DNA of 64,000 nucleotides from Octopus sinensis (GCF_006345805.1 NC_043013.1:8246001-8310000), one strand, 5' to 3'; numbered from the stretch's first letter, positions 4,421-62,706 are shown. Numbers and translations are program-made. The notes: generated from the letters alone by a model not told the origin.

Positions 4421-4870
4421 AATATAAATTAGAGATAAAACCTCTATTATGCAACTCAAACAGTGATAGACATAAACCAATACATCAATATCAAATAATA
4501 AATTTTTTCATAAAACATATAACTTATAACTAGATCTCAAAAGTATAAAATGAATGATAAATATATAATATAATAAGTAAAAACACTACCTACGTTTCAT
4601 GGCTACAATTAAATTTGAATTACAATTATATGATATATTTATTATATATTTATCATTCATTTTATACTTTTTGAGATCTAGTTATAAGTTATATGTTTTA
4701 TAAAAATATGTATTATTTGTTATTTATGTATTGGTTTATATCTATCACTGTTTGAGTTGCATAATAGTGGTTTTATCTCTAATTTATATTTTATATATTT
4801 ATACTGTGAAATTTGATTTAATACTAAATTGAATTTTTCCCTGTAAGTTTGGAGTTATACTCCCTAATAT
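4421..4870 (+). mobile_element. Fold-back element in (TA)n, probable non-autonomous Penelope derivative
   Basis: Arms of about 150 bp (4421-4570 vs 4640-4790). Spacer carries GAAACGTA on the minus strand (4591-4598). The extra 3' tail 4791-4870 is homologous to the reverse complement of 61425-61503. Confidence 0.7.
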
Positions 4871-4910
4871 TATTATTATTATTATTATTATTATTATATA
4901 TATATATATA

Positions 4911-5172
4911 TGAATAAACAGTAAATAAGTAACAAGGGTGTCCAGGTATCAGTGCATTACGGCCATTTAATCAATCAATGCAAACATTACATGAAATGTT
5001 TGCATTGACCAATTAAATGGTGCTGCTTGAAACGACCGTAATGCACCGATACCTGGACATCCTTGTTACTTATTTACTTTTTATTCACCTAACATTGAAG
5101 TGTGTGGACAATACTGAATAGAATGGGCGCCTCAACGTAAGTACTTAATTCAAATGAATCTTACTTATTTCT
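4911..5172 (+). mobile_element. Fold-back element in (TA)n
   Basis: Inverted arms 4911-4988 vs 4994-5087, with an unpaired tail of about 85 nt on the right; contains gaaacgaccgtaatgca. Confidence 0.6.
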
Positions 5173-5896
5173 ATATATACGAATATATATATATACATAT
5201 ATATACATATATATATATACATATATATATACATATATATATATATATATATATATATATACATACACACACATATACATACATACTTATATATGTATGT
5301 ATACATATATATGAATGTGTGTGTGTGTGTGCATATGTGTATATATACATATAATATATATATATATATATATATATATATATAATATATATATATATAT
5401 ATATATATAGTTTTAAGTCTGGTACTACTTCTATTGGTCTCTTTTATCAAACGTCTAAGTCATGGGGTTGTAAACAAACCAACACTATTTGCCAGGTGGT
5501 GGTAGAGGACAAACACAAACACACTTCAGCCTTGTAACCACACATGTGCTTTCCTTGGACTGTTCTGTTCCTCCTCTCTGGACCTTTCCTCTTTCCTTCA
5601 AAGTTCCATGCTTGAATGGTCTTTTTGCCATATTAAACTGAGGGTCAACCTAATACAATCACTGTGTATAAGGGTTCCTTATACATGTTAAAATATGGTA
5701 TATCATCATCATGATCATGATCATCATCATCGTTTGATGTCCACCTTCCATGCTGGTATGGGTTGGACAGTTTGGAAGGAGCTGGCCAGGTATGAGACTG
5801 CACCAGACTTCTGTGTCTGTTTTGGCATGATCTTTACAGCTGGATGCCTTCCCTAGTATCAACCATCTAGCAGGGTGGACGGTATATGCGGTATAT

Positions 5897-6128
5897 GCGG
5901 CGAGCTGGCAGAAACGTTAGCACGCCGGGCGAAATGCTTAGCGGTATTTCGCCTGCCGCTACGTTCTGAGTTCAAATTCCGCCGAGGTCGACTTTGCCTT
6001 TCATCCTTTCGGGGTCGATTAAATAAGTACCAGTTACGCACTGGGGTCGATGTAATCGACTTAATACCTATGTCTGTCCTTGTTTGTCCCCTCTGTGTTT
6101 AGCCCCTTGTGGGTAGTAAAGAAATAGG
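5897..6128 (+). mobile_element. tRNA-derived SINE family B (central domain resembles Meta-SINE), full length
   Basis: gcggcgagctggcagaaacgttagc...gagttcaaattcc (B box)...gactttgcctttcatcctttcggggtcga...aagtaccag; flanked by ggtatatg direct repeats. Confidence 0.88.
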
Positions 6129-58791: not shown

Positions 58792-59352
58792 TTGAGTGAG
58801 AGAGCAGTTCATGCCATCAAAGTGACACTGGGTTAAAATATACGAAACCCAATATACCCATCATGACTACTCGTCTGATAAGGGTACACCAGGCACATGC
58901 ATCACAACCATATGTGTGCGACATGGTGATCTCATATCAAGATAAACAGCACATGACCTTGCAGGTGGGGCCCAGTTAGAATTTTCTTCAGGCTGAGTAG
59001 CCCATCCCACTCAAAAGGTCCCTGAATAAGGGTTGTTTAAGGATGTTGAAAGAACCACCCATGTTTCCAGAGGTGAATTATTCAAACCCCAAAGAATCCC
59101 TCTCAACACATGGCTATGATGCTCCCCCACTACTTCTGCTCATGATCAGAGATGCACATATCGTCAGCCACTAAGGGACATGCTCAACTGGTTAAGGTCA
59201 AACAACTGACAAGTAAATCTGTGGTATTGAGCAGAATATTTGCTGTAGCCCATCTTTTATACCAAGACAAAACAATGTACATGATAACACTTCCAATCAG
59301 TTAAGATCAGAAGCCATGAGAGCCACTGCCTGGTACTGCATCAGGGCATTTA
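58792..59352. mobile_element. Unclassified young interspersed repeat next to (TTA)n tracts
   Basis: 59034-59352 is nearly identical to 62967-63285. Confidence 0.8.
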
Positions 59353-61424
59353 TTATTATTATTTTTTTTTTCTTCTTCTTTCAAATTTTCCACTCACAAA
59401 GTTTTGGTTGTCCTGAGGTTATAGTAGAACACACTTACCCATGGTGTCACGCAGTGTGACTGAACCCAGAGCCATGTGGTTGGGAAGCAAGCTTCTTAAC
59501 ACTCGGACATGCCTGCTTGCGTAGATCTGATGTACTACAGTTAGGTAATTGAAGAATATTTATTTGAGTTGCCTAGCGATAGACCATCACATTCTTATAA
59601 TGGCAGTAGTGGATGAGATTGGGTGATGAGCATGCTGTTCTAAAATTATGTGATTAAATGATTCAGCTGTGACATTGATCTAATTAAGTGACGATGTAAA
59701 CATTTCCTTCATTACAATACCTTCGTTAATTTTACACCCCACCCATCCCCAATCCCAACATAGGCAGATGAGGATTACTAGAAACAATTTATAAACCTAT
59801 AAACAGCTTCTACCCAACTTGAAGCTCGTTATATTTCATTAATTTTGTAAGATTTCAGTTCCAAGATATCAATTAGTGACCTTCATTTTTAATTGGATTC
59901 TAAAACACATGGTGAGTTTCATTTGAATGGCGCCATATAGTTTGCTGACAGGGGTTTTGGTTGTTATATCAAGTATGCAATAGAAATTAGAGATTTCTCC
60001 AATCACCGATACTTCTCTCAACACACAATGTCAACCCGTTTCGAAACTCACCGTTCTACAAGTAACCTTAGGGGTTTAATTCTTAAAAGGTCATTTGATG
60101 ACATTCTTTTGTATGTTTCCTTTCAACTGTCAACACTTGTGAAAATATAACTGGAAGCTGCAAATGGTTTCTGTTTGTAGAGATAAGAATTGTATGGGTT
60201 CAGTAAAATAAGGCTTCAGTGAAGCAAGTATTGGGATAAACCTCTTTATTATCAAGGATTTAAAAAAAAAAATACAGGTAAATAAATTTAATCAGTAGTC
60301 CCAGGTGTGGCTGTGTGGTAAGAAGTTCGCATCCCAACCACATTGTTCCAGCTTCAGTCCCATTGTGTAGCACTTTGGACAAGTGTCTTCTACTATAGCC
60401 TTGGGCTTTGTGAGTGAATTTGATAGACGGAGACTGAAAGAAGCCCTTTGTATATTTGTGTGTGTGTGTGTGTGAGCAAAGGTGAGTGACTTGGCAGTTA
60501 TGGTATTCAGCTCACAATTCTATAGATATACAAGTGTGTGTGTGTGTGTATATATATATATATATATATATGAAGAGCTCCGCTCGAAATGTCAAACCCT
60601 CCTTCTTCCCTGAGCGTCCAATAATACTTTATTTGTTCCACATCCTTGCATTGTTGTCTTTTTGTTTTCTTGTTTGGATTAACTTTATATATATATATAT
60701 ATATATAACAATTTAATAAATAAAACATATGCATACATACATACATATATGTACATACCTACATCTATATGTATATATACATGCATATATGGGTACAGGA
60801 CACCACAAATAAACGTAGAACACAACGAGAAACGAAAACATAAAATCAAACAAGGAAACAGTCTTTTTTTAACAACGAAAAAACAGAGTACAAGACAAAC
60901 AATACAAGGAACATTCCCCTTCTTCAGCTGCCCCTGTTTCGACTCAATGCGTGTTTCGACACATGTATAGGGGTAGTTTTAAAATATGTTCAAAAGAAGT
61001 GGACTAAATCATAAGATCATAGTAGATCTAACAGCTGACTGATTGATATCTAGCAGGTATGACATTGCCCGCCTACTGAAATTACTGAATAGCTGATCTA
61101 ACAATATAGAACTGCTATTTAAATCATAAATGAGTTCTATAAGACAGGTTTAACTAGTTTATGTAGTTTGTCTTTAAGTATTTGGTTGGCTTTCTCTGGG
61201 TGTGGTGTTGCTGGAGAAGTTGATGGTGGGGGAAGAATGGAGCTCTTAGTGATGTTGGTGAAATATCACAATAAGATTTAATCAGATTTTAAAATATGTT
61301 CAAATTATTTTATCCTTTTGTTCTTTTACATTGGACTCTGGCCATTCTGGGGGTCCAGTTTTAAGACTTTGATTCATCATATTACTCTTAAGAAGTCTTG
61401 TATTGGTGTGTATATATATATATA

Positions 61425-61833
61425 ATTATTATTTGAGGGAATAAAATCCAAACTTACAAGGAAAAAGAATTCAATTTAGAAATACTAAATCAAATTCCAC
61501 ACAATATAATATATATATATATATATAAAATATTAGAAAAAAACACCTTTTATCAATTCAAAAGGAATAATTAAATTACACCATCTAGAAAATTACATAT
61601 AATAGAAAAGTTAAAATTAAAATAACAATTAAAAAGTAAAGATTAAGTAAATTACAAAAATAATATTATGTACATAATAGGTAGGAAAACGTATGTTATT
61701 TTTGTAATTTACTTAATCTTTACTTTTTAATTGTTATTTTAATTTTAACTTTTCTATTATATGTAATTTTCTAGATGGTGTAATTTAGTTATTCGTTTTG
61801 AATTGATAAAAAGTGATTTTTTCTAATATTTTA
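61425..61833 (-). mobile_element. Fold-back element in (TA)n, tail shared with the 4421-4870 element
   Basis: Arms about 61525-61664 vs 61696-61833; tail on the left side. Confidence 0.7.
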
Positions 61834-61991
61834 TATATATATATATATATATATATATATATATATATATATATATATATATATATATATATATATATAT
61901 ATATATATATATATATATATATATATATATATATTATATATATATATATATAGATACATATATATACATACATATATATACACACACATAT

Positions 61992-62706
61992 AGGGCAAAT
62001 AAGAAAATGGAGATGATAATCAATCAATGAACATCAGCCTGTAGACATTCATTTATATTTAGTTATTAATTGATTGCAATCATGTGTATAAGTAATTAAA
62101 ATAAACAAATGGAAATAAGTAAATAAACAAGTAAATAAATAGATAAATGAAAATAAACAAATGAATAAAAAATAAATGAGTGAAAAAATATTTTCTTACA
62201 GCTGTTTCTGTTATGGGGTTTTTTCCCCCATTTATTCTTAGTCATTTGCTTATTTTCATTTATCTATTTATTTAATTGTTTATTTACTTATTTCCATTTG
62301 TTTATTTTGATTACTTATACATATGACTGCAATCAATTAATAAATAGAGTGGTTGGCGTTAGGAAGGGCATCCAGCCGTAGAAACACTGCCAGGTCTAAC
62401 TGGGCATGACGAAGCCTTCCAGCTTCACAGACCCCAGTTGAACTGTCCAACCCATGCTAGCATGGAAAGCGGATGCTAAATGATGATGATGATGATATAA
62501 ATGAATTTCTACAGGCTGATGTTTGTTGATTGATTATCCTCTCCATTTTCTTATTTGTCTTATAAATTCTGGGTAAATTTCTGTTTTACCCCCACTCATA
62601 CCTAGTATTCACTTGTGATACTGCCCTGCAATAGTAAGCACTTGGATGTAAATAGTAGTATATTGGATATTTATTATCCCTTAGATGGTTGCATAACCTC
62701 TAACTC
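61992..62706 (+). mobile_element. Fold-back element with a half hammerhead (GAAACAGCTGTA, minus strand), right arm interrupted by an RTE tail
   Basis: Arm 61992-62172 vs 62230-62346 + 62497-62560; RTE 3' tail inserted at 62347-62495; ttacagctgtttc near 62196-62208. Confidence 0.65.

Follow-up and report, generated by a model that had tools for sequence, protein, structure and literature searches.

The stretch analyzed here is a 64-kb window of the 2.72-Gb Octopus sinensis genome (NC_043013.1:8246001-8310000); its GC content is 35.6%, it is rich in (TA)n, and "the window" below means this whole stretch. An earlier note on this DNA had described short inserts in or against (TA)n runs, with hammerhead motifs and fold-backs tailed on one side, as a population of Penelope or retrozyme-like elements, and both kinds are indeed present. 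Inserts A, B, C and D are 5′-truncated 3′ ends of Penelope-like elements (PLEs) tied to PLE open reading frames (ORFs), and E, F, G, I and J would be of the same nature. Beside them lie two likely non-autonomous passengers, the retrozyme-like tandem unit H and K, which resembles a short interspersed element (SINE). We consider it probable that PLE 3′ ends and passengers together make up this population, and that the head-to-head form of many copies comes from priming at two sites on one RNA.

In what follows, e is the downstream 3′ end of the tailed arm, e′ is the AT-rich 3′ end of the tail-less arm, and the tail is the stretch between them. The inserts (K was added to those of the note) and their motifs are as follows.

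4421-4870, plus strand: fold-back of family F; its inverted, tail-less arm (4421-4628) extends into hammerhead stem II, its tailed arm spans 4634-4870, and the tail measures about 67 nucleotides (nt)
4911-5172, plus: fold-back of family G, with a tail-less arm (4911-4995), a tailed arm (4991-5172) and a tail of about 87 nt
17014-17243, plus: family A fold-back; tail about 70 nt; 3′ end of a Penelope/Poseidon-type PLE
17103-17132, plus: predicted hammerhead of A; type I, core CCGACGA, stem I of 8 bp
17475-17666, minus: family H; tail-less arm 17475-17657 (minus) from the hammerhead 3′ half, head-to-head with a 20-nt tail tip, 17647-17666 (plus)
20861-21440, minus: GIY-YIG fragment; coding match 21111-21359; ends in (TAA)n
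23034-23239, minus: one arm of family C, lying in (TA)n, from the 3′ end of a Neptune-like PLE
23133-23162, minus: hammerhead motif of C; core and stem II present, stem I decayed
32372-33110, plus: family K fold-back; tail-less inverted arm 32372-32755; tailed arm 32771-33110
37861-38054, plus: one arm of family B, lying in (TA)n, from the 3′ end of a Neptune-like PLE
37930-37957, plus: predicted hammerhead of B; core CUGUAGA
38575-38908, minus: family E tailed arm, cut inside hammerhead stem II; tail about 245 nt
38947-40463, minus: family D, a 5′-truncated PLE with a broken GIY-YIG coding region (39745-40135), 3′ untranslated region, hammerhead and tail-less 3′ end
39037-39107, minus: predicted hammerhead of D; canonical core, long stem II
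60572-60683, plus: family C copy between (TA)n runs, truncated inside the hammerhead core
61425-61832, minus: element I fold-back (61528-61832); tail 61425-61510, past an internal TA-like stretch
61989-62709, plus: element J fold-back; tail about 145 nt; split by a common SINE at 62347-62496
4586-4598, 17639-17650, 38854-38865 and 62197-62208, all minus: 3′ half hammerheads

All five one-sided fold-backs of the note (from 4421, 4911, 17013, 61425 and 61992) exist, while its view of the inserts as mutually unrelated needs correction: the tail region of I resembles family F (77.5% over 115 nt), the last 36 nt of J match family D, and the copy at 60572 belongs to C.

Nine inserts (A-H and K) were searched genome-wide, with the best 40 matches scored per family, and all nine represent high-copy families. 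The first-look candidates, which are not copy numbers, amounted to 3730 for A, 1317 for B, 2966 for C, 190 for the coding part of D, 836 for E, 1589 for F, 1314 for G, 1332 for H and 2774 for K. A, B, C, F, G, H and K each occur at 4-10 loci in 1 Mb of unselected sequence (100 stretches of 10 kb), which scales to about 10^4 copies; no locus of D or E was found in that megabase.

Penelope-like 3′ ends and predicted hammerheads

In family D, the GIY-YIG region (39745-40135) and the hammerhead (39037-39107) are parts of one element, colinear among 19 homologous loci that share one end, 38947. A long copy of A (L051) carries GIY-YIG between its tailed and tail-less arms (tblastn E value 1e-12), and the GIY-YIG of L209 is colinear with the C end through L204 and L208. 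Family B extends upstream, via L199 and L186, into reverse transcriptase (RT) and GIY-YIG sequence, and 101 relatives of this upstream sequence carry PF00078 (RT), PF26215 and PF01541 (GIY-YIG). The upstream RT/GIY-YIG ORFs to which the note had proposed extending the families were therefore reached for A, B, C and D, with RT itself seen for B only and the other three linked through GIY-YIG. By tblastn, A and D match one local PLE protein set, and B and C another. Upstream of the arms, copies have long stretches in common in E, F and G, of at least 635 nt in F and at least 860 nt in G.

Two GIY-YIG fragments of the window had been proposed as drivers. Both exist, but only the one at 39745-40135 is tied to a listed element, and 21111-21359 was linked to none of them. 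A relative of this (TAA)n-ending fragment lies at L098:2106-2502, near a fold-back adjoining a K 3′ part. The genome also holds a young, abundant PLE family (L289-L318; 24349 candidates, protein identity 89-95%, frames up to about 670 amino acids), whose 3′ region is long and microsatellite-rich and was linked to none of the window families.

A type I hammerhead is predicted near the 3′ end in A, B, C, D, E, F, H and K, whereas I and J have at most 3′ halves; for G, a GAAA-type 3′ half lies at about 5029, but no convincing 5′ half was found. With a structural type I descriptor and block dinucleotide shuffles as controls, the window gave three matches against a mean of 0.1 in 20 shuffles. The earlier descriptor found seven hammerheads in 600 kb of unselected sequence (0-1 in shuffles), and a wider one, defined after the core variants of the families were known, found 17 in the unselected megabase (0-1, mean 0.1, in 10 shuffles), so that hammerheads do exceed their frequency in shuffled sequence. 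The full or variant motifs that the note had placed at 17095, 37926 and 39030 pass the descriptor; the one at 23133 fails, its stem I being decayed, although other copies of family C pass. The 3′ halves it had placed near 4591, 17639, 38854 and 62196 were recovered, and longer genomic copies supply the 5′ halves for F, H and E (4586, 17639 and 38854); in family F, 7 of 25 loci carry the complete motif, with core CUGAAGA and a long stem II. A further half expected at 60586 is lost, as the C copy there is cut inside the core and reads GAAAUGU instead of GAAAC followed by a palindrome.

CCGACGA is the most frequent hammerhead core in family A. At core position 6, 67 of 71 B motifs carry U, and all 41 C motifs carry A. 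Other programs gave little: among the matches listed by an Rfam scan of the window (150 of 364), nearly all were microsatellite-driven miRNA matches and none was a hammerhead, unconstrained folding of H gave no hammerhead fold, and constrained folds of C, E, F and the window copy of K missed stem I. Like the minimal PLE hammerheads in the relevant passages of PMC4209133, those found here are of type I, with a palindromic or absent stem III and an extra base after position 9, fall into many families per genome and can lie in opposite-strand pairs 100-700 bp apart. They differ in their core variants, which have C at position 4 in family A and U at position 6 in family B, where the same passages name only U3-A8, and in the stems II of 50-80 nt of D, E, F and H. 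Further hammerhead families outside the window occur at L057, L098, L103, L105, L109 and L325, and at L209:1-294 with L203, L205 and L298.

The proposed targeting of TA microsatellites is not universal, K being an exception. Of 37 non-K arms (three of them counted twice, under F and I), 28 have a (TA)n run no more than 30 nt from their 3′ end; of 10 K arms none has one, and the background is 6.9%; in the searched loci, 34 of 40 B and 33 of 35 C copies have their 3′ end at a TA run. Truncation at the ribozyme cleavage site was tried as an explanation of the 5′ ends and ruled out: among 43 arms, only one ends within 6 nt of the site, 5 end inside the motif, 23 further upstream and 14 downstream. 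Some copies are thus truncated within the ribozyme, as the note had stated, without clustering at the cleavage site. Neither the genomic 5′ ends nor the K reads described below pile up there, though neither can show absence of cleavage. Target duplications, which cannot be scored inside (TA)n, were scored for K only; 13 of 20 scorable pairs reached a score of at least 8, against 12 of 380 mismatched pairs, with lengths of 8-16 bp.

Head-to-head insertions and their possible origin

An inverted copy with a one-sided tail occurs in A, D, E, F, G, H and K, with distances from e to e′ of about 70 nt (A), 140 (D), 245 (E), 67 (F), 87 (G), 105 (H) and 30 (K). The fold-back-plus-tail form is not, however, common to all inserts: head-to-head copies are rare in B (2 of 42 loci, with both ends full) and absent in C (0 of 35), two families that have a single 3′ end and occasional direct tandems. 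In a census of 111 de-duplicated head-to-head insertions, 89 paired a tailed with a tail-less arm, one was tailed on both sides (a borderline case), one was a tail-less pair, and three were cut by the edge of the locus. Both ends lay on a start site in 91 insertions, so the one-of-each pairing holds in 89 of 91. D and H were queried without tail sequence; D contributed five one-of-each rows and H eight, in each case with one row from other loci, and neither gave a same-site pair. Three apparent tailed pairs of H were tandem artefacts, resolved by scoring the outer ends. F has inverted arms in 16 of 25 loci, with only six rows in the census as AT-rich matches were dropped.

The two arms vary freely in length. 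Of the 48 close pairs that do not belong to the A set selected for fold-backs, 19 have a longer tail-less arm, 18 a longer tailed arm and 11 equal arms; in L039 the tail-less arm measures 1610 nt against 598 nt for the tailed one. In three of the 48 the arms do not overlap at all (window H, L266 and L202), window H joining its 20-nt tail tip to the tail-less arm via a short overlap at the junction; L260, first read as another such pair, was not upheld. The arms also share variants: departures from the commonest letter that are common to both arms are 2-5 times more frequent within a copy than between copies (36/2210 in A, 16/1861 in F, 57/1573 in G and 22/2178 in K, never reached in 2000 permutations; 5/955 in H, reached in 8 of 2000). 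This comparison covers A, F, G, H and K, D having no scorable pairs.

These features could be produced as follows. The PLE RT-endonuclease would cut both strands of an AT-rich target, mostly (TA)n, the target bias found here; such cutting is described in vitro for the Anolis Poseidon discussed below. One end would then prime at e and the other at e′, 30-245 nt upstream, in line with the one-of-each pairing; since e and e′ are both AU-rich, short primer-template pairing probably helps. Both cDNAs would run toward the 5′ end of the RNA and stop independently, because either arm can be the longer and the centre varies. Where the arms overlap, the second cDNA would require strand displacement on intact RNA; PLE RTs are not known to have RNase H. 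The two cDNA ends would finally be joined, sometimes at microhomology, leaving target duplications of about 8-16 bp of the kind seen in K. The template would be uncleaved, multimeric or perhaps circular RNA, because copies cross the cleavage site and arms of H and of a second such unit, N, exceed one unit. Families B and C, taken as Neptune-like, would use one 3′ end and seldom invert. In L1 twin priming, both ends of the target also prime on one RNA and an inversion results, its segments not overlapping; here, the arms usually overlap and the second site is fixed per family.

An alternative is that each cut end is served by its own RNA, held by a protein dimer. Overlapping arms would then need no displacement, a dimer is predicted in the passages of PMC11167929 relevant here, and two loci look two-templated: in L050:718-2300, a tail-less D arm with ORF stands head-to-head with a tailed K 3′ part and no target duplication was seen, and L139 joins two B subfamilies. 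Two RNAs alone, on the other hand, explain neither the rarity of same-site pairs (2 of 91) nor the sharing of subfamily variants within a copy, and we regard this origin as rather unlikely.

In the other alternative, put forward by Arkhipova 2013 (PMC3846280) and Craig 2021 (PMC8557442), one cDNA would snap back and prime itself (or an antisense template would be used), and the endonuclease would trim one arm to leave the tail. The shared variants agree with a single template, the TA-like e′ could itself be cut by the endonuclease, and near-symmetric arms occur in 25 of 37 A rows; this symmetry is a consequence of the query. K copies that reach the 5′ end (L225, L227 and L234) carry a short palindrome at that end, including those whose other arm is short, which also suits snap-back. 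Self-priming of a tailed cDNA gives neither a longer tail-less arm (19 of 48 pairs) nor non-overlapping arms (window H, L266, L202) unless a deletion follows, and passages of PMC11167929 show two RT start sites in vitro. The pairing rule, the free arm lengths, the non-overlapping arms and the shared variants thus favour twin priming on one RNA, and snap-back appears improbable.

Most of this pattern is known PLE biology in new families. Passages of PMC8557442 and PMC3846280 report inverted copies, tails and TA bias for endonuclease-bearing (EN+) PLEs, self-priming being proposed for the inverted copy in PMC3846280. The Penelope/Poseidon and Neptune PLEs they describe share with ours a GIY-YIG domain after the RT, strong 5′ truncation, a one-sided tail, partial tandems, microsatellite bias, short target duplications and a 3′-end hammerhead. 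Tails are stated there to be 30-40 nt long, whereas ours measure 67-245 nt (30 in K); those PLEs invert, whereas B and C almost never do, and the pairing of tailed with tail-less arms is counted here. For PAc, the Anolis Poseidon (Frangieh 2024), passages of PMC11167929 describe both strands cut and extended at AT-rich DNA in vitro, two RT start sites that bound the tail, and ribozyme cleavage as dispensable; none of the reads stops at the cleavage site, just as no genomic 5′ ends gather there in the octopus. What is new is the pairing rule, the longer tails, retrozyme-like units with the PLE signature, a likely PLE-dependent SINE and the fixed U6 of B. The one-of-each rule with independent arm lengths bears on the origin of the inverted copy and predicts a specific product in the in vitro system already in use.

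Retrozyme-like and SINE-like elements as likely passengers

The tandem unit of H spans 527 nt and contains one hammerhead but no ORF (the longest Met-started frame has 43 codons). Its tail end joins its own start at an identical point in 8 of 13 distinct loci; the tandems comprise 1-2.5 units with arms of up to 725 nt, are dispersed, and have their outer ends at e and e′. The unselected sample yielded another such unit, N, of about 500 nt, with a canonical type I hammerhead and a stem I of 8 bp. At L334:1-1485 with L359:934-1600, N forms a 2-kb head-to-head structure in (TA)n with e and e′ ends; further loci are L069, L066, L160 and L271. In one N insertion the arms measure about 2.5 and 1.7 units, and an end of N that had not been seen was predicted at e′ and then found there. 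H and N show only faint likeness, near e (E value 0.009).

Judged from sequence, H and N would be ORF-less units akin to non-LTR (long terminal repeat) retrozymes that bear the PLE insertion signature. The retrozymes described in passages of PMC7229834 and Li 2026 (10.64898/2026.07.22.740005) are likewise ORF-less tandem units with one type I hammerhead each, and the same sources propose PLEs as their movers; their stated unit length is 170-400 nt, against about 500-527 nt here, and H and N show the PLE signature itself. The mover of animal retrozymes has so far been inferred from co-occurrence and phylogeny.

The tailed arm of K consists of a transfer RNA (tRNA)-like head (32771-32845), (AAT)n, a decayed hammerhead from 32985 and a tail of about 30 nt, and the window copy has a 16-bp target duplication (32361-32376 = 33112-33127). 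In 25 searched loci, the 3′ part is inverted in 18, and in 19 a head sits in register no more than 260 nt upstream of it, on a single arm or on both; the head has a common 5′ limit and lies inside the target duplication, and the flanks are unique sequence. Heads picked by a loose box pattern have an exact A box in 16 of 22 and a B box in 14 of 22; the head may derive from a tRNA. A and B boxes in the head, a 3′ part taken from a partner retroelement, and target duplications characterise SINEs derived from tRNA; octopus OK and OR SINEs are of this class, and Sm-alpha of Schistosoma is SINE-like with a hammerhead. K resembles tRNA-derived SINEs in head, 3′ part and duplications and differs in its head-to-head insertion with a PLE-type tail, and it is likely a SINE mobilised by Penelope. 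Such a PLE-dependent tRNA SINE, if true, would add a partner class for SINEs. No report of one was found in a search of the open literature, which covered neither subscription journals nor repeat databases. In passages of PMC6962438, PMC8967140 and PMC10294476, hammerheads, Penelope or SINEs of molluscs are mentioned without being linked. In the window copy, about 110 nt of unrelated sequence (32526-32630) is inserted in the inverted arm.

A search of sequencing runs listed no RNA run as a carrier; in three RNA runs that have their species label in common with a DNA run listed as one, 4724-6434 reads map to the 3′ part of K, equally on both strands (the head was skipped as a repeat). As 73% of these continue into unlike sequence and there are no pile-ups of starts or ends, they fit passenger transcription and are not informative on cleavage. 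At L217:1494-1673, the median RNA-over-DNA ratio was 22 for A>G/T>C (14 places) against 4 for the 15 others (p 0.004), a comparison of minority-variant rows among the matches listed (40 of 69) with DNA of another individual, in contigs that drop rare variants; this suggests, as a hint, A-to-I editing of K hairpins.

H and K might instead be pieces of longer PLEs not yet seen, H having multiplied locally as a satellite and K having arisen where a tRNA SINE happened to join a PLE end. No partner ORF was found for either, the head and 3′ part of K are parted by (AAT)n, a common insertion target, and passages of Li et al. 2026 (10.64898/2026.07.22.740005) discuss local tandem amplification of PLE ends. 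A satellite does not account for dispersed tandems of 1-2.5 units with e and e′ outer ends, nor a chance join for a head that is in register in 19 of 25 loci with a common 5′ limit inside the target duplication, and we give this view little credence. That the hairpins are non-autonomous units copied whole, such as miniature inverted-repeat transposable elements (MITEs) or fold-back DNA with incidental hammerheads, is scarcely credible: the best 40 matches to the window A copy all show the whole hairpin with its tail, but that set was selected by the query and its recurrent arm-specific variants are, by eye, those of the query copy, so that whole-hairpin propagation of A was rejected; queries with the tail alone retrieve single arms as well as arms that differ in length, symmetric terminal inverted repeats with fixed centre and fixed target duplication were not seen, and the inserts are not MITEs because their centres vary among copies and their 3′ ends continue into RT/GIY-YIG sequence.

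Several observations weigh against PLE ends and passengers inserted by two-site priming on one RNA. As to identity, no ORF was found within 1.5 kb upstream in E, F and G; L123 (F) offers only a short ORF-start-like piece with a putative clade likeness and no tblastn match. Pfam gave nothing above cut-off on the ORF fragments (GIY-YIG E value 0.17 for L209), and the labels Poseidon-like (A, D) and Neptune-like (B, C) are putative, assigned from motifs and tblastn grouping rather than from a tree. As ribozymes, the hammerheads are predictions. As to pairing, 17 of the 111 insertions have an end off both start sites, 30 of the 89 one-of-each pairs come from an A set selected for fold-backs, and the queries for A, E, F, G and K included the tail, which under-samples tail-less pairs, though not two-tail pairs. 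L050 and L139 may reflect two templates or two events, and conversion of one arm by the other, or two RNAs with a single source, could account for the variants shared by arms. PAc shows no strand difference in start site, in the passages of PMC11167929 concerned, whereas the ends differ in 89 of 91 insertions here, and no homology to the cut DNA, whereas e and e′ are AU-rich like the target. As to the passengers, no autonomous partner was found for H or for K; Rfam found neither a tRNA nor a hammerhead in the K stretches, ARAGORN at a relaxed cut-off recognised the head as a tRNA in no more than 3 of 22 copies and in none of 20 shuffles, and the junction overlaps of K, 0-10 nt, may be due to chance.

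A bolder version, in which Penelope machinery drives a whole ecosystem of passengers, with H and N as circular retrozymes, K as a SINE transcribed by RNA polymerase III and two-site twin priming on one RNA as an obligate step, is tentative and in our view somewhat doubtful. If true, the mobilisation of retrozymes and SINEs by PLEs would have direct genomic evidence, the origin of the inverted copy would be settled, and the fold-backs would form a built-in source of A-to-I edited double-stranded RNA. Annotation pipelines would label debris of this sort unknown or MITE-like.

Other repeats of the window

Two very common SINE-like repeats, which we take to resemble octopus repeats, occur at 4007-4406 and about ten other places, and at 16848-16996, 62347-62496 and elsewhere. 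They often end in or adjoin the same microsatellites as the inserts, and nesting is frequent. A tRNA-Pro gene lies beside an F copy at two near-identical loci 2 kb apart (L121:1874-1946 and L131:1873-1944). Comparison of the window with itself gave more fold-back or palindromic regions at 9208-9989, 9907-10194 and 13999-14095, as well as inverted pairs 1.2-1.3 kb apart at 5897-6127/7386-7616 (91% identical) and 418-727/1910-2214 (76%).

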